A stretch of 64,000 nt of DNA from Candidatus Terraquivivens yellowstonensis (GTDB lineage Archaea > Thermoproteota > Nitrososphaeria_A > Caldarchaeales > Wolframiiraptoraceae): the NCBI GenBank assembly GCA_023539445.1, contig JAKCEW010000003.1, forward strand, positions 2,250 to 66,249, given 5' to 3'. Numbering within the stretch: position 1 is the first letter of the stretch; each line of letters opens with the position of its first letter. The notes below the pieces were generated by a model. It was not told where the DNA came from, did no database searches, and saw only the letters and a list, made by a program, of their open reading frames with translations. Positions 6,897-45,901 of the stretch are shown piece by piece. The position numbers and the translations under genes are program-made.

Positions 6897-8809
6897 TAGT
6901 TATGGAGGATTATTCCAACATAAAATTGAAAGTCGGTCTGGAGATACATAGGCAACTGGACACAAAGAGGAAATTGTTCTGTGATTGTCCGACGGAAGAG
7001 GCCGAAGATGGTGAAACCATAACTTTTGTCAGAAAATTAAGAGAAGTTCAGAGTGAGCTTGGTACAGTAGACGCGGCGGCAATGTTCGAATCAAAAAAGC
7101 GAAAAACGATAGTCTACCATGCAAACCTCAAGAATGTTTGCCTAGTCGAGATGGATGAGGAGCCTCCGCATAACTTGAATCCTGAGGCTCTTGAAATCGC
7201 TCTTACTGTTGCTCTTTTACTCGACTCCAAACCAGTTGATGAAGTTCACGTAATGCGCAAGATAGTCATAGACGGTTCTAACACGACAGGATTCCAGCGC
7301 ACGTGTATAATCGGGATAGGAGGGCAAATAAAGATAAAGAATAAAACCATACCCATACAGACGATAACCCTCGAGGAAGATGCTGCTAGGATAATAGAGG
7401 TTGGAAAAGACGAGGTTCATTACGACCTATCAAGGCTTGGCATACCATTAATAGAAATTTCGACGGAACCAGTCATCGAATCGCCTGAAGAAGCAATGGA
7501 AGTAGCTTACGCCATAGGAAGAATATTAAGGGCAACGGGCAAGGTTAAGCGGGGCATAGGGACTATCAGACAAGACTTGAATATATCAATTAAGGATGGA
7601 GCACCTGTCGAGATAAAAGGTGTCCAAGAGCTCGAGCTTATCCAAAAGGTTGTGGAAAACGAGGTTAAGCGGCAACTGCATCTTTTGTGGATAAAAGAGG
7701 AATTGCTAAAACGCGGTGTTAGGAAGGAAGATATTTGGAACGCAAAACCCGTTGATGTTACCCACATATTCTCCAAAACTTCCAGCAAGATAATCAGAAG
7801 ACAGCTTGAAGCGGGCGGGGTCGTGTACGCAATAACATTGAAGGGATTTGCCGGATTGCTGAGTCTACAACCATCGCCCGGCATAAGGCTTGGTGCAGAG
7901 ATTGCAGGAAGGGTAAGGGCATGGAGCGACGTGGAAGGAATATTCCATACGGATGAGCTCCCCAATTACGGAATAACGATTGAAGAGGTTAAAGCTCTGA
8001 AAGATGCAATGGGTGCTGGAGAATACGACGCCGTGGTCATTGTGGCAGCGGAAAGGGACAAGGCATTGGATGCGATAGAGGTTATTAAGGAAAGAGCGGC
8101 GGAGGCCTTAGATGGGGTACCCGAAGAAACTAGAGCGGCAAGGCCTGACGGAACAACCGTCTACATGAGACCGAGACCGGGCTCGGCAAGGATGTATCCA
8201 GAGACGGACATCCCACCAATCATAATTTTACAAGAATATATTGAATACCTGAGAGCGAGGCTTCCAAAGACTTTGGACGTTGTGAGTCAACAACTTGTTG
8301 AGAAGTATGGACTCAGCAAGCAACTTGCAAATGATCTTATAGACAGTGAGGTGGTTGAAGATTTTGAAGAGATTGTTTCGAAAACTGGAGTATCTCCTAC
8401 CGTCGTAGCATCCACGTTGACGGAAGTTCTCAGAAGTTTAAGGAGGGAGGGGGCTAACGTTGAAAAGATAACCAAAGCGCACATAATGAGGTTCTTTGAA
8501 CTCGTGTCATGCAACAAGGTGGCGAAGGAGGCCGTTAGGGATGTCTTAGCGGCCGTAGCACAGAAAGGACGGAGCGTAGATCAAGTCATAGACGAACTTG
8601 GTCTTTGGTCTCCTCCAGCTTCAGAGGTGGAGGGCAGAATTAAGGCGCTTGTTGAAGAGCACAAGCAAGAGATCTTTGCTGATGAAAGGAAAGCCGTAGC
8701 TAAGTTGATGGGTGAGCTAATGAAATATTACAGGGGCAGGGTTGATGGGGCGCTCATAAACAGCATGCTAATAAAGGCGATTCGAACGCTCAAATCTGGG
8801 GAGCAATAA
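6893..8809 (+). CDS. gatE: Glutamyl-tRNA(Gln) amidotransferase subunit E
   Basis: 638 aa with a GatB/GatE catalytic domain and a GatE-specific insertion. It forms an operon with gatD. Confidence 0.85.
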   Translation: MIVMEDYSNIKLKVGLEIHRQLDTKRKLFCDCPTEEAEDGETITFVRKLREVQSELGTVDAAAMFESKKRKTIVYHANLKNVCLVEMDEEPPHNLNPEALEIALTVALLLDSKPVDEVHVMRKIVIDGSNTTGFQRTCIIGIGGQIKIKNKTIPIQTITLEEDAARIIEVGKDEVHYDLSRLGIPLIEISTEPVIESPEEAMEVAYAIGRILRATGKVKRGIGTIRQDLNISIKDGAPVEIKGVQELELIQKVVENEVKRQLHLLWIKEELLKRGVRKEDIWNAKPVDVTHIFSKTSSKIIRRQLEAGGVVYAITLKGFAGLLSLQPSPGIRLGAEIAGRVRAWSDVEGIFHTDELPNYGITIEEVKALKDAMGAGEYDAVVIVAAERDKALDAIEVIKERAAEALDGVPEETRAARPDGTTVYMRPRPGSARMYPETDIPPIIILQEYIEYLRARLPKTLDVVSQQLVEKYGLSKQLANDLIDSEVVEDFEEIVSKTGVSPTVVASTLTEVLRSLRREGANVEKITKAHIMRFFELVSCNKVAKEAVRDVLAAVAQKGRSVDQVIDELGLWSPPASEVEGRIKALVEEHKQEIFADERKAVAKLMGELMKYYRGRVDGALINSMLIKAIRTLKSGEQ

Positions 8810-38514: not shown

Positions 38515-39612
38515 TCAGATATCGGTTGGTGATATGTTCATCATAGCTACCTCTACACTTCCCGTCTTTCCCCTTTGTACGAACATTTTGTCCGGAAATC
38601 TGATTGCTAAGTTGTTGAACACATCATGAACCATGCTTGGTGTTGAGAATAGTTTTCTTTCTAGCAAAAGGAAAACACAAAGCCTTTCCAGCATGTTAAG
38701 GTTTACCGCGTTCCCTTTACTCGTAAACCTACCATATGCTTCAATTAGCATGCTTGCTACATCGAGCCTACTAGCTTTCGTCAGACCCGGAACCATGAGC
38801 GGTGCTAGATCTTTTATGACTTCTTCCTCGATTCTTTTCAAGGAAACCTTAAGGTAACCTTCGAATAGCTCTTTACACTTAACAAAGCTCTCCTCTGCGG
38901 AATACTTACCCCTACCAGATCTTTTGAGAATGCCCAAATCTACGAGCCACTCTAATCTAGGCGGAGCTATATGCCTGTATTTGGCATACTGGCTGCTCTT
39001 TATCCATTCGCTTTTATTCTCTAAACTGAGTCTTTTCATCTTGAATTTTTCTGCCTCGGCTATCTCCTTCTCCACCATGCTCCTCTTCTTCGCATCAACC
39101 TTTGTTACAATACTCTTCAAAGCAGATGGGTAAAGCTCCTCCATCATGTAATTCATCGCTTCCATCCTAGTAAACTCCTCACGTTCTAAAGCCCAAATTA
39201 TAGTATTCAGCAAAAATGGAAAGTCCGCGGAGATTAAAGTGGTGAAGAACAGCATTTTTTCAACGGGATTTAGCGTCAATAACTCTTCGTGTGTAATTTG
39301 TTTGCTTTCGTGGAGGAATTTTGTTGCGGAGTTGAGTCTTACGTAAATCCTGCCGATGTCTCCCAAAGTCTGCGTCTTTCTATCGAGTATGTTCATCTCT
39401 GCCGCAACGGAGACGTAATTTCTTGCGTTTACCGGTCTAGTGATTATCCCTATGGGTTTTATCGGAAGCTGCGGCGGCCCGATGTTGCGTATGAAGTCGT
39501 AAAGATTGGATGCCAAGAAGTCGAAGCTTTTCGGTGTGTCCTCCTCTGCGAGGCAAGCTATAAGTCTCATGTAACCCAGTCTGCAAACATCTCCATGTGT
39601 TTCCAGAATCAT
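38515..39612 (-). CDS. Hypothetical protein, candidate restriction-endonuclease partner of the upstream DNA methyltransferase
   Basis: 365 aa with no recognisable motif. It is translationally coupled to the methyltransferase by a 4-nt overlap. Confidence 0.3.
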   Translation of the reverse strand: MILETHGDVCRLGYMRLIACLAEEDTPKSFDFLASNLYDFIRNIGPPQLPIKPIGIITRPVNARNYVSVAAEMNILDRKTQTLGDIGRIYVRLNSATKFLHESKQITHEELLTLNPVEKMLFFTTLISADFPFLLNTIIWALEREEFTRMEAMNYMMEELYPSALKSIVTKVDAKKRSMVEKEIAEAEKFKMKRLSLENKSEWIKSSQYAKYRHIAPPRLEWLVDLGILKRSGRGKYSAEESFVKCKELFEGYLKVSLKRIEEEVIKDLAPLMVPGLTKASRLDVASMLIEAYGRFTSKGNAVNLNMLERLCVFLLLERKLFSTPSMVHDVFNNLAIRFPDKMFVQRGKTGSVEVAMMNISPTDI

Positions 39613-40808
39613 GCAAAAACCTCCATCGGCACCTTAGCCCAAGCGACAGGCTCGTCGTTGGGTATGGGATTACCTTTGTGGAGTTCTAGTATCCTCTCTC
39701 GGCTCACACCTTCCTCTTCTTTTATATACATAAGGTGCTTGTTGGACTTTGGTATAGAGTCCGAAATCAATCTAGCGACGGTAAAGCCTACGGTTTCAGC
39801 TATCGGTGCTATCATCTCCGCCATGTTGATGTAGTAGCCGTTCAGCCTCACGTCACCAACAACCACAAAACAGGCTGAGTCGTCCTTTAAGACCCTAAAC
39901 ATCTCTTTCAGGGATTCGTACATGAAAATTTTAAATTTCTGCTTCGATTCTGATTGAAATAGCTTACTCTTCACCTCTAGGTAATCATATCCTAAAAACC
40001 ATAATCTCAGCCAGTTGTCCCAAGCATAGGTCTGCATGTTGAAATAGGGCGGAGACGTAACTATCAAGTTAACGCTTTCATCCTCTAGTGGTAGATTCCT
40101 AGCGTCTTCCATCGTCGCTATGCCTCTAATCTTCGGCAGACCGTCTTCTAAAACCCTTTCGGCCTTCATGAGTAGGCACTTCAATACGTCCCTCTTGGGT
40201 TTTCTTAAGCCGTTCTTCTTGATAAAACGCCGTATATACTTTGGAGACATCGAGAAGGCGTGAGAACACGGTACGCTCAAGTGCATTTTGGTAGGGCCGT
40301 GGAGTATTCCGCACATGAGTGCTTTTATGAAATTTGCAAGGTCTGAATCGTCGTCCATCAATATATCCCTTATCGCCAATATCTGCTTAAGCGTAGATTT
40401 GCTAAAGAACACGCGGACGTCGTCGCTTATTTCGTCAACGTCATAGCTTTCCGGGTCCCACTTTGCCCTTGTCTTGCATATCCATTCTTTTACGCAATCC
40501 AAAGTAACTGGGTTCACTTTAGCTCTCGTTATAACATATGCCTCTGGTGCCAAATCGTTGCCTATTCCGATTCTTCCATTCAGACAGGCCTCAAGGGGCA
40601 AGGTTCCCTTTCCAGAGAAAGGGTCAAGAACAACATCACCACGCCTAGAGTACCTTTTTACGAAGTAATGAGCAAGAGCGGGAGGGAACGAGCCAGTTCT
40701 GGAACATATCCTATGAAGGCTCGAGCCCCAGCCATCGCCTGCATACTTCCAAGAATCATGTATCTCTGTGCTTAAAACCGTGAGGTAGTTTTTCATCGAA
40801 GGGCGCAC
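39609..40808 (-). CDS. DNA methyltransferase, N4-cytosine/N6-adenine type (PF01555-like)
   Basis: Motif X/I HRICSRTGSFPPAL...VVLDPFSGKGT, then a ~170-aa variable region, then catalytic motif IV TSPPYFN. SPPY is typical of m4C methyltransferases. Confidence 0.75.
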   Translation of the reverse strand: MRPSMKNYLTVLSTEIHDSWKYAGDGWGSSLHRICSRTGSFPPALAHYFVKRYSRRGDVVLDPFSGKGTLPLEACLNGRIGIGNDLAPEAYVITRAKVNPVTLDCVKEWICKTRAKWDPESYDVDEISDDVRVFFSKSTLKQILAIRDILMDDDSDLANFIKALMCGILHGPTKMHLSVPCSHAFSMSPKYIRRFIKKNGLRKPKRDVLKCLLMKAERVLEDGLPKIRGIATMEDARNLPLEDESVNLIVTSPPYFNMQTYAWDNWLRLWFLGYDYLEVKSKLFQSESKQKFKIFMYESLKEMFRVLKDDSACFVVVGDVRLNGYYINMAEMIAPIAETVGFTVARLISDSIPKSNKHLMYIKEEEGVSRERILELHKGNPIPNDEPVAWAKVPMEVFA

Positions 40809-41602: not shown

Positions 41603-41715
41603 AGCCCGGTCGTCTAGCGGCCAAACATTCGGTCAGATGGGCCAAGGATCGCGGGCTCTGGATCTTGTGATGGAGGAGAACCCCGCGGACGCCGGTTCGA
41701 ATCCGGCCCGGGCTA
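41603..41715 (+). tRNA. tRNA-Gln (anticodon CTG) precursor with two introns
   Basis: Acceptor AGCCCGG/CCGGGCT (A1:U72) and an archaeal Gln-like D arm GTCTAGCGGCCAA. The anticodon stem GCGGG/CCCGC has loop CUCUG followed by a ~19-nt insert. T arm GCCGG-TTCGAAT-CCGGC, discriminator A. The gene is 113 nt against ~75 expected. About 21 extra nt in the D-arm/position-26 region and ~19 nt after position 37 imply two introns. Confidence 0.65.
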
Positions 41716-42516
41716 TCAATTCTTTGCTATCAAGCGTTGGACGGCTTTTGGGTATCCGTATTTCGATAAGATGGCCCTAGCGGCAGGGCTCTTCGTTAAA
41801 GATTCATAACCAACTTTAGCCGTCTTATCGTTCTCCTTGATTATTCTTGCCAGTGGGTCGCCTGGTTCGACATCTTTCGTGAGCAATGCTAAACCTGTAA
41901 ATACAAGCCCACTTGGTTTTATGCCATCAACATGTAACACGTCCATCGCTACCCACTCCACGCTTGCACCGCTTATCTCACCCGATTCTATCATTCGATT
42001 CACGTTCAGGTCCGATATCCAGACGAGTGCTTCGACCGCGCCGTTCTCGTAATCGGCAACGATTACAAAATTTTCCGGAAACGGTAGCACCTTCGAATGA
42101 TTTATACTCACCGGTCTCATGGCGAGGCTCCTAGCCGCCAGCCTTAATTCTTCTTCAGTAAAAAGGGTGTTATTCAGAGTCTTTCCGACGTGTAAAGCTT
42201 TGACCTTCCAAACCTTGGCACCCTTTGACTCAGCCAAATTCTTGTAGAGCTGGAATGTATCTGAGGCCCATTTGAAAGACTCAGTACCAGAGGCATGCTT
42301 CTCAAACCACTCTTTGGCTTTCTCGAGCGTCCAACCCTTAGCCTTTGAGAAGAGGTAGCTCTGAATCTCCATTCCTTGCTTTCCCTTCGGCTTGGCGACT
42401 ATGGCCTTTATCCCTTTCTCTGGATCTATATCTATGGTTCTGAACGTGCCTTCCTCAAAATCGTTAGGATCTCTATGACCGCTTCTTATATACTCCTCAG
42501 TTTCTTCCCACGGCAT
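41716..42516 (-). CDS. HK97-family prohead protease-like protein (tentative) with an N-terminal extension
   Basis: 266 aa. A His in VSINHS and a Ser in ISGASVEW lie ~45 residues apart, the same spacing as the catalytic His/Ser of U35/S78 prohead proteases. It sits directly downstream of a portal-sized gene. Confidence 0.35.
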   Translation of the reverse strand: MPWEETEEYIRSGHRDPNDFEEGTFRTIDIDPEKGIKAIVAKPKGKQGMEIQSYLFSKAKGWTLEKAKEWFEKHASGTESFKWASDTFQLYKNLAESKGAKVWKVKALHVGKTLNNTLFTEEELRLAARSLAMRPVSINHSKVLPFPENFVIVADYENGAVEALVWISDLNVNRMIESGEISGASVEWVAMDVLHVDGIKPSGLVFTGLALLTKDVEPGDPLARIIKENDKTAKVGYESLTKSPAARAILSKYGYPKAVQRLIAKN

Positions 42517-42519
42517 GGT

Positions 42520-43788
42520 TTACTCTTTCACCTCTGTCCCCTCGGTTAGCATGAAACCAAGCCTCTTCAGCATCTCCCGTAGTTCATCAAGTCTTACGAC
42601 CGGCACCCCTCGTGCCAGCAGTTCGGCGAACTTTATAAGATGATCTACCTCTATTCTTGGTTCTTCTTTCAGACCCCAATTCCATCTTACGTTTGCCTGC
42701 CTAGGGTCTATACCGTGCGTCCTGAGAAATTCGTCGAATATTTCGCGCTCCGTCACACGCTTGATGAACCTTCTAATTGCCATGAGCTTCCTCTCCATCG
42801 TCGCATCCGCTACCCTCGCGGACGCCTCAGTGAACCCAGGAGTCGTGAAGAGCCTTACATGGTGTGTCTGCGTCCCTATCACAAATTGGTCGAATATGTG
42901 CTTCCAGAAGAACTCTAAGACTGCCCTAGAGGAAACACCTACCTCCCTTACGTCGAACTCTTTACTGTTTGTCAGGAAGTCCTGCTCTGGTTCAAGCTTT
43001 TCTAATTGTGATTGTGCCTCTTTCAGAACATCAAGGGGCATTGTGGGAAATACGTAAACGTGTCTTGGTATCGCCTTTATAGCAAGCCTCATTGACGCAT
43101 CGTCTAGTTTCTCCTTCAACCTGACGAACGGCTCACGCTTTCTGAGTTTGCCCCTTATCATAAACCCCACACCTTCCGTCAGCATCGATGTAAGCCAACC
43201 CGTTCCAAAGGCACGTTCATCAACGACGTTCCATCTGTAGTGAATGACGAGCTTGGATGATAGCTTGGTCTGTTGGCCCTTATAAAGGCGGTTATACCAT
43301 AAAACCGTTCCATCTGGTGCTCGCACGGCCGATACTATAGAGCTAAGCGGCAAAGGCTTTATGTCTACCAACGTCGCACCCTTTGCTGGAACTATGATTT
43401 CCACTTTCGCTGATGTCCAAGGATCTTTGAGCACATCGATATCGTAAACGTCGTAAATCCTCTCCAAGAAGAAGTTGCCACATAACGTCGTCCACTTCGC
43501 TATTTTTAAATGAAGCTCGTCAAGGTTTATTTTTGCATTGAACTCATCGATGCTGTCCTTCGCAACGTCAACGTCGGCTGTCGTGTAACCTCCCATACCT
43601 GCGATTGCCTGCTCTATATAATCGGCCGCGCTCATGATAAGCGGGTCGCTCAGATAATAATCCACGTATTGCTGGAACGGAATGATTGGATATTCGATAG
43701 TCCCGGATGTCATGTAAGTGGTTGAATGCTGCACGGATTCGGCTATTGCTCTGATGGACACTTTTTCCATCAATCTTCTCAGGAACAT
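42520..43788 (-). CDS. Portal-like protein (tentative; size and gene order only)
   Basis: 422 aa, acidic, no Walker motif (so not a terminase). It lies immediately upstream of the protease-like gene, as in HK97-type head modules. Confidence 0.3.
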   Translation of the reverse strand: MFLRRLMEKVSIRAIAESVQHSTTYMTSGTIEYPIIPFQQYVDYYLSDPLIMSAADYIEQAIAGMGGYTTADVDVAKDSIDEFNAKINLDELHLKIAKWTTLCGNFFLERIYDVYDIDVLKDPWTSAKVEIIVPAKGATLVDIKPLPLSSIVSAVRAPDGTVLWYNRLYKGQQTKLSSKLVIHYRWNVVDERAFGTGWLTSMLTEGVGFMIRGKLRKREPFVRLKEKLDDASMRLAIKAIPRHVYVFPTMPLDVLKEAQSQLEKLEPEQDFLTNSKEFDVREVGVSSRAVLEFFWKHIFDQFVIGTQTHHVRLFTTPGFTEASARVADATMERKLMAIRRFIKRVTEREIFDEFLRTHGIDPRQANVRWNWGLKEEPRIEVDHLIKFAELLARGVPVVRLDELREMLKRLGFMLTEGTEVKE

Positions 43789-43904
43789 TTCAACGTAATG
43801 TTAAAACAACGTAAATAAAAATAGCATAACACAAAATGTGGTGAAACTGAAGCGAAAATACATGTAAAAAATTTATGACCAAGTTTTTGTGAAAATTATT
43901 TGGG

Positions 43905-44159
43905 ATGAGAGAGCTGGAGCAGTTCGTAAAGATATTAGAATTGGCGAATGCCGGTGGTGTTACGCCCTACAGGATTGGGCGCGTACTGGGAATCAACTAT
44001 CAAAAACTTAAGCGTATTTTGGAGTATGCGGTAAACGAAGGGATAATGACGTATAAACAGGCAAGGGCTGGCTCGAAAGTTTATGAACTTACCGAGAAGG
44101 GGGAGAGGTTGCTGAATGTTTGGGTTAGCTTTAACTATGAAGATGCAACGAATATATGA
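43905..44159 (+). CDS. Small winged-helix DNA-binding protein
   Basis: 84 aa. TPYRIGRVLGINYQKLKRILEYAVNEGIM is an HTH recognition helix, followed by the wing KVYELTEKG. Confidence 0.5.
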   Translation: MRELEQFVKILELANAGGVTPYRIGRVLGINYQKLKRILEYAVNEGIMTYKQARAGSKVYELTEKGERLLNVWVSFNYEDATNI

Positions 44160-44223
44160 CGTCCCGTAATTTATGAAGTCTGCGTCATAGTTTTTAGGAA
44201 AGTATTTGTACAAAATTTTTTGA

Positions 44224-44658
44224 GTGGAAATGGATGCGTGGCCTGATTCAAACGTTGGGGATTTGGTTTCCCCGAGAGATGAGAGCGTCGTATTAAGTTT
44301 CAAAGCCGGTGCAACGATATCAAAAGGAGACCCCGTGTATCTAATGGATCGAGATACCGTAGCACCAGCAACTGCACCGACGAATTGTATAGGAATAGCC
44401 TTGGAGAATGCCTCAGAAGGTGACTATGTGCCAGTATGCGTGTTGGGTGTCGTGAAAGTCGTGGCGGGCGCGGCAATAACCATGGGTCAGGCTGTGTATG
44501 GTGCGGATTCATCAAAACGCATACTTCCGCTGACCGACCAAGATGTAAATGAAAGTGGGGTCAATACGTATACAATATACTATGCTAGGAGGCTCGGCAT
44601 CGCTCTCGATAACTTCACGGCCCCTGGCGATACTGGTAGAATCCTCGTGGTGAAGTGA
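44224..44658 (+). CDS. Head-decoration-like beta protein (tentative)
   Basis: 144 aa, Gly/Val/Ala-rich core GIALENASEGDYVPVCVLGVVKVVAGAAITMGQAVY. It sits immediately upstream of, and is translationally coupled to, the capsid-like gene. Confidence 0.35.
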   Translation: MEMDAWPDSNVGDLVSPRDESVVLSFKAGATISKGDPVYLMDRDTVAPATAPTNCIGIALENASEGDYVPVCVLGVVKVVAGAAITMGQAVYGADSSKRILPLTDQDVNESGVNTYTIYYARRLGIALDNFTAPGDTGRILVVK

Positions 44659-44659
44659 T

Positions 44660-45622
44660 ATGAGTTGGCAGGACATAATGCCCAAAAAGTTTGAGACACT
44701 ATACAGCGATCCAAAGATTAGAGATGAGATCAACGAGCTGTTGCCAAAATTCTCGGCAAATCCCATATTTACCCGCATCTCAGAGCTGTTTCCATCCGGC
44801 TACGAGTCCATAACAAGCAGCATGCTTGGTGCAATAGCCAGAATGCATGACGTGGTGGTCGAGGCAGCCCAGCCCAACTTGATAGCAAGGCAACTGGTTC
44901 AGGTCATAAGGACTTCAGACCCTATTGTGAGATTCCCCAAAGCGAAGAGGGCGAAGGCATATAGGAGTGCAGAGTTGGCTCAAGTGTGGATTACGGGCGA
45001 GAAATACGAGGTGCAGGATGTAAAAGCCGACTTAGAGATAAGGGCGGCTGCTGAATGGACGAGGAAGTTCCTCGAGGATGCCCCATGGAGCGTGTTAGAA
45101 AGACAGGCTGCGGAGCTGGGTAGGGCCGTCGGCCTACTTGAGACGGAGGAGGTTATAGGAATGTTCATGCGGATACCCGAAGACGAGCTCGCTGGAGGTT
45201 CTGAGGTCATCGCCGTCAACGATGGAAAGCTTAGTTACGAGGATGTTGTAAACGCTAGGAGGGCCGTTCTGAAGGAGATGTTCCATCCAGACTGCCTGCT
45301 TGTCAGTGTATCTAGAGAGGCCGACCTTTGGAAGGATGATAAGTTCATACATAGCTTTTACTTCGGCGAGACTGTCGATAAACAGAGGGGTGTGCTGGGC
45401 AACTTTCTAGGCCTAGAGCTAATAGTTGACAACAGCGGCTCGGTCCCGGATAATAAAGCATTTGTTATCGATAGAAAGGCGGCCGGTGTGCTACTTGTCA
45501 GACGGGACTTAACGATAAGTAGCTATGAGACGATGAAGGACGAGGTCTATGGCATAATGGCAAGCGAACGAATAGGCATGGAAATATTGCGTTCAAAAGC
45601 CGTAGCAAGGATAAGCATCTGA
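44660..45622 (+). CDS. HK97-fold major capsid/encapsulin-like protein (tentative)
   Basis: 320 aa. The C-terminal DLTISSYETMKDEVYGIM resembles the conserved DL[ST]IGYE..EKD..V ending of encapsulin/HK97 A-domains. Position after a decoration-like gene supports the call. Confidence 0.4.
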   Translation: MSWQDIMPKKFETLYSDPKIRDEINELLPKFSANPIFTRISELFPSGYESITSSMLGAIARMHDVVVEAAQPNLIARQLVQVIRTSDPIVRFPKAKRAKAYRSAELAQVWITGEKYEVQDVKADLEIRAAAEWTRKFLEDAPWSVLERQAAELGRAVGLLETEEVIGMFMRIPEDELAGGSEVIAVNDGKLSYEDVVNARRAVLKEMFHPDCLLVSVSREADLWKDDKFIHSFYFGETVDKQRGVLGNFLGLELIVDNSGSVPDNKAFVIDRKAAGVLLVRRDLTISSYETMKDEVYGIMASERIGMEILRSKAVARISI

Positions 45623-45627
45623 AGGAT

Positions 45628-45813
45628 ATGCCTCCGGCTAAGGTTAAGATGACAATAACAGTTGACATGCAGGTTGCCGAGTACCTCGAAGGATTGCACC
45701 GAAAGCTCGTCCAAAAGATGCTCGAAGAGCGTAGAAGACCCCCAAGCTTCAGCCAATTCATGAACGAGTGGTTGTCGAGGCACATTTCAGAAGAGATCGA
45801 AAGGACGGGCTAA
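45628..45813 (+). CDS. Ribbon-helix-helix (CopG/Arc-like) DNA-binding protein
   Basis: 61 aa. N-terminal beta strand KMTITVDMQVAEYLEGL followed by two helices. Confidence 0.45.
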   Translation: MPPAKVKMTITVDMQVAEYLEGLHRKLVQKMLEERRRPPSFSQFMNEWLSRHISEEIERTG

Positions 45814-45901
45814 ACCACCTACCTCCCCAATTTTTTACTTTCGAAAATCGGTGTAGGAGAATGTTTATTACGCTCGCTTGGAATGAGAAAACTTCGCGAG
45901 A

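Follow-up and report, generated by a model that had tools for sequence, protein, structure and literature searches.

A 64,000-nt stretch of contig JAKCEW010000003.1 from Candidatus (Ca.) Terraquivivens yellowstonensis, referred to below as the window, carries at positions 41716–45813 a cassette of six open reading frames (ORFs) that encode a prohead protease, a portal protein, a small winged helix-turn-helix (wHTH) protein, a Phage_cement_2 protein, an HK97-fold major capsid protein and a 61-aa protein. The cassette appears on balance to be an exapted head-assembly module that has become fixed in the chromosome and is selectively maintained, and the cell probably uses the head genes. An initial annotation, made by inspection of the sequence, had described it as a head-morphogenesis cassette stripped of packaging machinery, which proved accurate, and had left two explanations standing, a decayed provirus or a domesticated capsid. 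For this genome co-divergence and purifying selection speak for domestication and against decay, although decay is real in two sister lineages. The ORF listing contained all six ORFs exactly where that annotation had placed them, and the GC content ran without a break across the region.

The cassette is vertically inherited and under strong purifying selection in every gene. It lies between the adenine phosphoribosyltransferase (PRTase) and transfer RNA (tRNA)-Gln genes on one side and an aldolase gene on the other, both in the window and in loci L095, L096 and L098/L004, of which L096 belongs to T. tengchongensis (the same species as L008–L013) and L098/L004 to T. ruidianensis; at least three Ca. 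Terraquivivens lineages have an intact cassette at this one site in the chromosome. Nonsynonymous (dN) and synonymous (dS) divergence was estimated by the Nei-Gojobori method for all species pairs. Cassette dS was 0.36–0.58 between the window and L095 and about 0.7–1.9 in deeper pairs, and that of the flanking host genes (p365, methyltransferase, PRTase and aldolase) was 0.48–3.2, matching the cassette dS in every species pair. The dN/dS ratios, which are approximate where dS exceeds 1 and comes close to saturation, were 0.04–0.155 for all six cassette genes and 0.03–0.14 for the flanks. Individually, the ratio was 0.05–0.10 for the portal gene, 0.043–0.086 for the capsid gene among intact copies, 0.05–0.10 for the wHTH gene and 0.04–0.09 for the 61-aa gene.

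Two further loci of the genus display the cassette in decay, which set in independently in the two lineages. In L097 (CALKCF01) the host flanks are intact and the cassette is broken: insertions (7 bases), deletions (50 bases) and two stops interrupt the portal gene, frameshifts affect the protease, cement and 61-aa genes, and an in-frame stop interrupts the capsid gene. In L007 the tRNA 3' end is fused to about codon 85 of the cement gene, with deletion of the protease, portal and wHTH genes; the remainder carries frameshifts and a TGA at capsid codon 3, and the 61-aa gene keeps an undisrupted frame over its aligned part (59 of 61 residues, 86% identity). Capsid dN/dS in pairs that include L097 or L007 was 0.064–0.114, slightly above that of intact pairs, and from this slight rise it follows that the losses are recent and therefore that the cassette was functional through most of the history of the genus. 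The cassette decays quickly once selection lapses. We also noted in the L097 pseudogene a small inverted duplication, a segment at 8667–8765 that resembles portal residues 125–157 on the opposite strand.

Conservation extends to the noncoding DNA of the cassette. The 116-bp divergent region showed 87% mean column identity across five species and contains two conserved A/T-rich, TATA-like boxes about 25–33 nt from the portal and wHTH start codons, and a 64-bp stretch 5' of the cement gene showed 81%. By comparison, four-fold degenerate sites of the portal and capsid genes were only 44–61% identical in distant pairs; conservation of the promoter regions far exceeds that of synonymous sites and goes past neutral expectation. 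A palindrome, AACATT-N7-AATGTT, overlaps the portal start (window 43789–43815) and is conserved in all five Terraquivivens species, making it a candidate operator; the putative promoter and operator roles are read from these sequence patterns.

We then examined the identity of each protein (Table 1). The capsid protein alone scored just under the Pfam Phage_capsid cut-off (21 bits versus 24.2) and matched several PHROG major-head families. Its family comprises 173 homologs, the majority with PF25209/PF05065, and a profile of 43 family members matched the major capsid protein chain 6wkk_A in the PDB at E 8e-15, as well as the HK97-like capsid of Haloferax tailed virus 1 (HFTV1). An AlphaFold model (predicted local distance difference test, pLDDT, 85.4; predicted template modelling score, pTM, 0.81) conforms to the HK97 fold, which is defined by a spine helix, P-domain, A-domain and E-loop, and Foldseek comparison of this model with the PDB gave 371 matches at E ≤ 1e-3, HK97, HFTV1 and cyanophage A4 included, all of them phage, archaeal-virus or encapsulin shells. 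The cement protein matched Phage_cement_2 (PF09956) with 51.2 bits against a gathering cut-off of 24 (E 1.7e-13) and also PHROG 673 and 122, which are head proteins; in relatives its gene always lies immediately upstream of the capsid gene. Because the orthologs are 142 aa long, the cement protein probably starts at ATG 44230 and not at GTG 44224, the start of the mechanical 144-aa ORF.

The portal and the protease required more distant comparisons. The window portal had no Pfam match of its own, and its family profile found no match among PDB sequences; homologs at about 33% identity carry Pfam Portal_Mu/Phage_portal, models that 14 of the 38 aligned family members match (best E 2.8e-11), and the gene lies inside or near the head-gene cluster in about 150 related loci. 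The protease was identified by fold search alone, which returned an assemblin-like fold. It matched no Pfam family at E ≤ 0.1, Peptidase_S78 (PF04586) included, and its family profile matched no PDB sequence; H140 and S185, the predicted catalytic pair, are invariant in 44 homologs. These results bear out the initial calls of a portal, of a prohead protease with a His/Ser pair, of a head-decoration protein and of an HK97-type capsid.

The window protease measures 266 aa against 385–450 aa in viral homologs and lacks their C-terminal extension. Residues 1–228 gave a dN/dS of 0.03–0.12, whereas the C-terminal tail gave 0.2–0.4 and its end point varies from species to species, as that of a truncation junction would be expected to do. 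The conserved N-terminal domain of 75 aa has a faint Pfam YonD_N match (listed at window 41716–41940); Bathyarchaeia homologs have a second copy of this domain in their C-terminal extension (L002 6020–6232), and the Terraquivivens protease retains the first copy only. In T. tengchongensis the protease ORF runs about 16 codons further, antisense to tRNA-Gln (L096 7002–7068; L008 12060–12126). Several public annotations omit this gene, yet all six genomes carry the same unbroken ORF. Missing gene calls in L008, L009 and L011 had pointed to within-species loss of the protease, a reading that was dismissed: they are an artefact of annotation at the overlap between this ORF and the tRNA.

As to the two small proteins, the initial wHTH assignment of the 84-aa protein agrees with its Pfam HTH_45 match (28.1 bits versus a cut-off of 25.5); an NCBIfam Sso10a_fam match under its cut-off makes it weakly Sso10a-like. 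The 61-aa protein had no significant family or PDB match, leaving its ribbon-helix-helix (RHH) fold unconfirmed. Both genes are specific to Terraquivivens among the lineages described below, the wHTH gene being absent from the other two with head-only cassettes. None of the protease, portal, cement, capsid and 61-aa proteins matched a PADLOC defence model, and the 84-aa protein gave only weak wHTH-type matches (E ~1e-3).

Table 1. Features of the head-gene cassette in the window, and the tail-block protein of related elements
Feature	Position	Strand	Basis	Remark
tRNA-Gln(CUG), two introns	41603..41715	+	ARAGORN on manually spliced sequence	left cassette boundary
Prohead maturation protease, assemblin/T4 gp21 fold, 266 aa	41716..42516	-	fold search	His140/Ser185
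Portal protein, 422 aa	42520..43788	-	homologs carry Portal_Mu/Phage_portal
Presumed divergent promoter region	43789..43904		conservation, A/T-rich boxes
Winged-helix protein, 84 aa	43905..44159	+	Pfam HTH_45	presumed regulator
Conserved stretch upstream of cement gene	44160..44229		conservation	presumed second promoter
Capsid cement/decoration protein	44230..44658	+	Pfam Phage_cement_2, PHROG
HK97-fold major capsid protein, 320 aa	44660..45622	+	profile, AlphaFold, Foldseek
Conserved small protein, 61 aa	45628..45813	+	conservation	putative ribbon-helix-helix by sequence pattern
Tail-block protein, 464–469 aa	L001 13460-14869; L002 11390-12799; L042 12833-14227

Virus functions other than head assembly are missing from the locus, as had been observed initially. 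Beyond the cassette, no terminase, tail, integrase or other virus-like gene was found within the 64-kb window, and the cassette proteins themselves include no integrase or replication gene; nor is any cargo-type gene evident within or adjoining the cassette. We compared 662 ORFs of at least 200 aa from about 85 related loci with the 64 kb, and they matched the cassette and the methyltransferase only, barring two isolated matches in flanking cellular genes (at ~35.3 kb and 36.6–37.1 kb). Terminase_6N/6C was identifiable in just six near-identical IMG/VR contigs (for example, L068 4798–6183), and these terminases matched nothing in the window, nor anything lying 10 kb or less from the head genes of 80 genome loci. 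Because none of the 80 related loci has this one identifiable type of terminase nearby, its lack at this locus is weak evidence for a genome-wide lack. With no integrase, attachment (att) repeats, terminase or tail module, the locus does not have the makeup of an integrated provirus of the Caudoviricetes.

The left boundary of the cassette is an intron-containing tRNA-Gln(CUG) gene, a feature the initial annotation had recognised. ARAGORN gave no tRNA at this site in the unspliced window, and Rfam detected the T-arm only, via its transfer-messenger RNA (tmRNA) model. When the introns at 41623–41643 (21 nt, in the D-loop) and 41663–41681 (19 nt, beside the anticodon loop) were spliced out by hand, the tRNA folded into a canonical cloverleaf with a Gln anticodon and ARAGORN called tRNA-Gln(ctg); the tRNA-Pyl that ARAGORN reported with intron options was set aside as a miscall. 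Comparison of five species revealed invariant exons and variable introns. The protease stop codon directly follows the discriminator base at the tRNA 3' end. Consistent with the initial failure to see an att duplication, no second copy of the tRNA 3' end occurs within the 64-kb window, and a repeat scan of the window returned chance-level repeats only. One candidate att remnant, TTCGAAAATCGG at ~45842–45853, looked T-loop-like by eye and was judged a chance resemblance because it is missing from L007.

The relatives surveyed comprised 80 IMG/VR contigs (L015–L094) and 80 species-representative genomes. Members of the capsid family abound in Bathyarchaeia, and the quartet of protease, cement, capsid and portal recurs in the surveyed contigs and genomes. 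Bathyarchaeia head-tail elements, whether from IMG/VR or integrated (for example, in Ca. Bathyarchaeum tardum CP122380), share this homologous quartet with the cassette at a capsid identity of 33–48%. They differ from it in the longer protease described above, in an integrase that some of them have (L042) and, where the flank is long enough, in a usual tail block, which a conserved 464–469-aa protein opens, followed by AF_1625_C-domain and Phage_tube_2 proteins and one of ~535 aa that is YQBQ-like. The 469-aa protein was considered as a terminase and rejected for want of a Walker A motif, its only matches being weak and C5-epimerase/glycoside-hydrolase-like. As for terminases, in Bathyarchaeia elements the gene is either distant from the head module, or many of these elements are also without one.

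The survey revealed two further groups of head-only cassettes, both on contigs of hot-spring Nitrososphaeria. One (L006/L014/L178–L185) has a capsid protein about 60% identical to that of the window and the same divergent layout, and the comparison of L006 with L014 gave a dN/dS of 0.05–0.13, indicating purifying selection. The other (L099/L186–L188) has a capsid protein about 51% identical and is flanked by ATP-binding cassette (ABC) transporter and major facilitator superfamily (MFS) genes. Both comprise protease, portal, cement and capsid genes between cellular flanks, with no tail genes. The three head-only cassettes occupy different chromosomal sites, and each lineage keeps its own fixed site. 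In a capsid neighbour-joining tree, a quick distance tree without support values, the three groups cluster in a single clade whose sister group is the tailed elements of Bathyarchaeia, a topology that suggests a single origin of the head-only state. L006 and L175 come from one hot-spring metagenome (JGI 3300031749) in which a Terraquivivens-type and an L006-type cassette lie on contigs of different organisms.

Four other explanations were weighed against selective maintenance by the host. The cassette could be a helper-dependent, capsid-encoding satellite that builds its own heads, borrows terminase, tails and integrase, and re-inserts at tRNA-Gln, as its position at a tRNA 3' end, its head-only gene content and the three related head-only cassettes at different sites in different Nitrososphaeria lineages would allow. 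We regard this as unlikely: the cassette lacks att repeats and any gene for an integrase, replication or a small terminase, its dS follows that of the flanks in every species pair, its site is fixed in each lineage, and no relative above 47% capsid identity was found among 2.9 million viral contigs, nor any close relative in GenBank phage records. Capsid-forming phage satellites (capsid-forming phage-inducible chromosomal islands, cf-PICIs) encode an integrase along with replication and packaging functions, and they spread horizontally. The cassette resembles them as a tail-less set of head genes in a host chromosome and differs in having no such mobility, replication or packaging genes and in being vertically inherited.

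Likewise improbable is an encapsulin-like nanocompartment or DNA-free structural shell, in which the portal would serve as an assembly nucleator only. The HK97-fold shell protein, with encapsulins among its structural neighbours, and the lack of a packaging enzyme in 64 kb are compatible with such a shell, and a cement protein would suit one that is thermostable. However, known encapsulins lack portal, protease and cement proteins and are encoded next to their cargo. The cassette is like them, for example the Pyrococcus furiosus virus-like particle (2e0z), in its chromosomally encoded shell protein of HK97 fold, and unlike them in that it has all three of these proteins, with portal and protease under purifying selection, and no candidate cargo gene in or beside it; in sequence, moreover, the capsid protein groups with viral capsids and not with encapsulins. 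The encapsulin analogy drawn at first is thus a weak one, given the portal and protease kept under selection and the want of an evident cargo gene.

Very little weight falls on anti-viral interference, whereby resident head proteins would co-assemble with, or titrate, parts of infecting viruses and so poison their assembly. Domesticated prophage structural genes can exclude relatives, a type II methyltransferase and its partner ORF are neighbours of the cassette, and loss in some lineages is typical of defence genes; against this, no cassette protein matches a PADLOC defence model, four assembly-competent genes and a catalytic protease exceed what a decoy needs, and no related infecting virus is known from the viral contigs or the phage records. 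An inert remnant of a degraded provirus, with the head genes as its last part and no function in the cell, would fit the lack of integrase, terminase, tail, lysis and replication genes and of an att repeat, the truncation of the protease at the tRNA junction and the pseudogenised copies in L097 and L007, but is strongly disfavoured by the selection data, since at a synonymous divergence of at least 1 mutation should have disrupted some of the six ORFs in the three lineages if none were selected, the dN/dS of the cassette equals that of its housekeeping neighbours, the promoters are conserved past neutral expectation, and the decayed copies display what neutrality looks like at this locus.

If the cassette is a head-assembly module maintained by its host, it would descend from a tailed archaeal virus of the group widespread in Bathyarchaeia, which may have entered at the tRNA-Gln 3' end in an ancestor of Ca. 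Terraquivivens. The other modules would then have been lost, with one deletion endpoint inside the protease gene, and the portal, the catalytic part of the protease, the cement and capsid proteins and two small putative DNA-binding proteins would have been kept. Back-to-back archaeal promoters would drive portal and protease one way and cement and capsid the other, probably under control of the wHTH protein, the 61-aa protein or both. The products would form icosahedral shells that bear a portal, are matured by the protease and are stabilised by cement. Such shells might be filled or completed by outside functions, conjecturally those of a terminase and perhaps of tails. The genes for these might lie elsewhere in the chromosome, which would amount to a split system like a gene transfer agent (GTA), or an infecting relative might supply the functions. 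We favour shells with outside partners over a sealed protein compartment because the portal is constrained as tightly as the capsid protein.

Several points weigh against a maintained head-assembly module. A terminase or tail partner is a conjecture, the examined part of the genome being 64 kb. Two of the five Terraquivivens lineages have lost the cassette, which is therefore dispensable. The extension lost from the protease may be a scaffold, in which case assembly competence would not be assured. Finally, all compared genomes are metagenome-assembled, and saturation makes the dN/dS values of the deeper pairs approximate.

GTAs (RcGTA and similar) are vertically inherited, non-autonomous derivatives of tailed viruses under purifying selection, some of whose genes lie at separate loci. 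The cassette resembles them in all of vertical inheritance, purifying selection, lack of autonomy and probable tailed-virus origin. Every known GTA head cluster has a large terminase and is linked to tail genes, whereas the cassette has neither of these within itself or in the 64-kb window. With GTAs and encapsulins it shares the logic of a viral structural module retained by a host. Our literature search found no description of a conserved head-only cassette with portal and protease and without terminase or tail.

Related archaea do contain virus-derived morphogenesis genes. CalSub-Pro in the aigarchaeon Ca. Caldiarchaeum subterraneum is a full head-tail element with the large terminase subunit TerL (Krupovic et al. 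2019, PMC6563490), and GTA-like domestication has been proposed for CalSub-Pro, Nvie-Pro1 and NCAV2-Pro1 of Aigarchaeota and Thaumarchaeota, which have no att sites or replication genes (PMC6563490). The cassette is like these three in its virus-derived morphogenesis genes and its lack of att sites and replication genes, but they have TerL and a full tail module and it has neither. CalSub-Pro also encodes a Pfam S78 protease beside its capsid gene, whereas the protease of the cassette is not recognised by Pfam S78. Because head-tail elements with a terminase were already described in Ca. Caldiarchaeum subterraneum and Thaumarchaeota (PMC6563490), HK97-type genes in this lineage are not new in themselves, contrary to what the initial annotation had supposed.

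Host-owned derivatives of tailed viruses have been known as whole particles (GTAs), as tails only (tailocins and contractile injection systems) and as the capsid protein only (encapsulins). If our reading is true, a head with portal, protease and cement and without terminase or tail would fill a gap in this series, here in archaea, from which hardly any domesticated viral particles have been documented. Sister species within one genus hold intact alleles and naturally decayed ones of a compact six-gene cassette, which makes this a testable case. A terminase or tail locus elsewhere in the genome would instead make it a split GTA-like system, an early example for Aigarchaeota. A broader proposal, which we put forward tentatively and consider rather doubtful, is that thermophilic Nitrososphaeria (Terraquivivens and the two other lineages) share an anciently domesticated, portal-bearing head system without linked terminase or tail. 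Such a system would be neither GTA, tailocin nor encapsulin but a new, virus-derived class of particle owned by the host. It might serve as a container that an unlinked or unconventional motor loads via the portal, or it might be the head half of an archaeal transfer agent whose genes are dispersed over the genome.

The genes that flank the cassette are all cellular, as the initial annotation had it for the nearest pair. On the tRNA side lie the adenine PRTase gene and then a type II methyltransferase with a 365-aa partner; on the other side are genes for a class II aldolase, the proteasome alpha subunit, SBDS and exosome subunits. A weak match to a wHTH-PRTase-associated Pfam family had raised the PRTase as a partner of the cassette. 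It is an ordinary adenine PRTase (202 bits versus a cut-off of 143), the gene is intact where the cassette has decayed, and the partnership was rejected on both counts. The methyltransferase, a type II N4/N6 DNA methyltransferase of 399 aa, overlaps the unannotated 365-aa ORF by 4 nt (window 38515–40808, minus strand), and the two are probably a restriction-modification pair; they are conserved and under purifying selection in all Terraquivivens loci, those with decayed cassettes included. T. ruidianensis (L098 11466–12830; also L004 and L005) has a 454-aa family-2 glycosyltransferase gene between the 61-aa gene and the aldolase gene, an insertion absent from the other species that marks the right edge of the cassette as insertion-prone. 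Elsewhere, Bathyarchaeia-type cement and capsid genes occur on a 2.5-kb contig (L107, CAZOUM010000131.1) binned in a metagenome-assembled genome of a Pirellulales bacterium, a placement that is probably a binning error.

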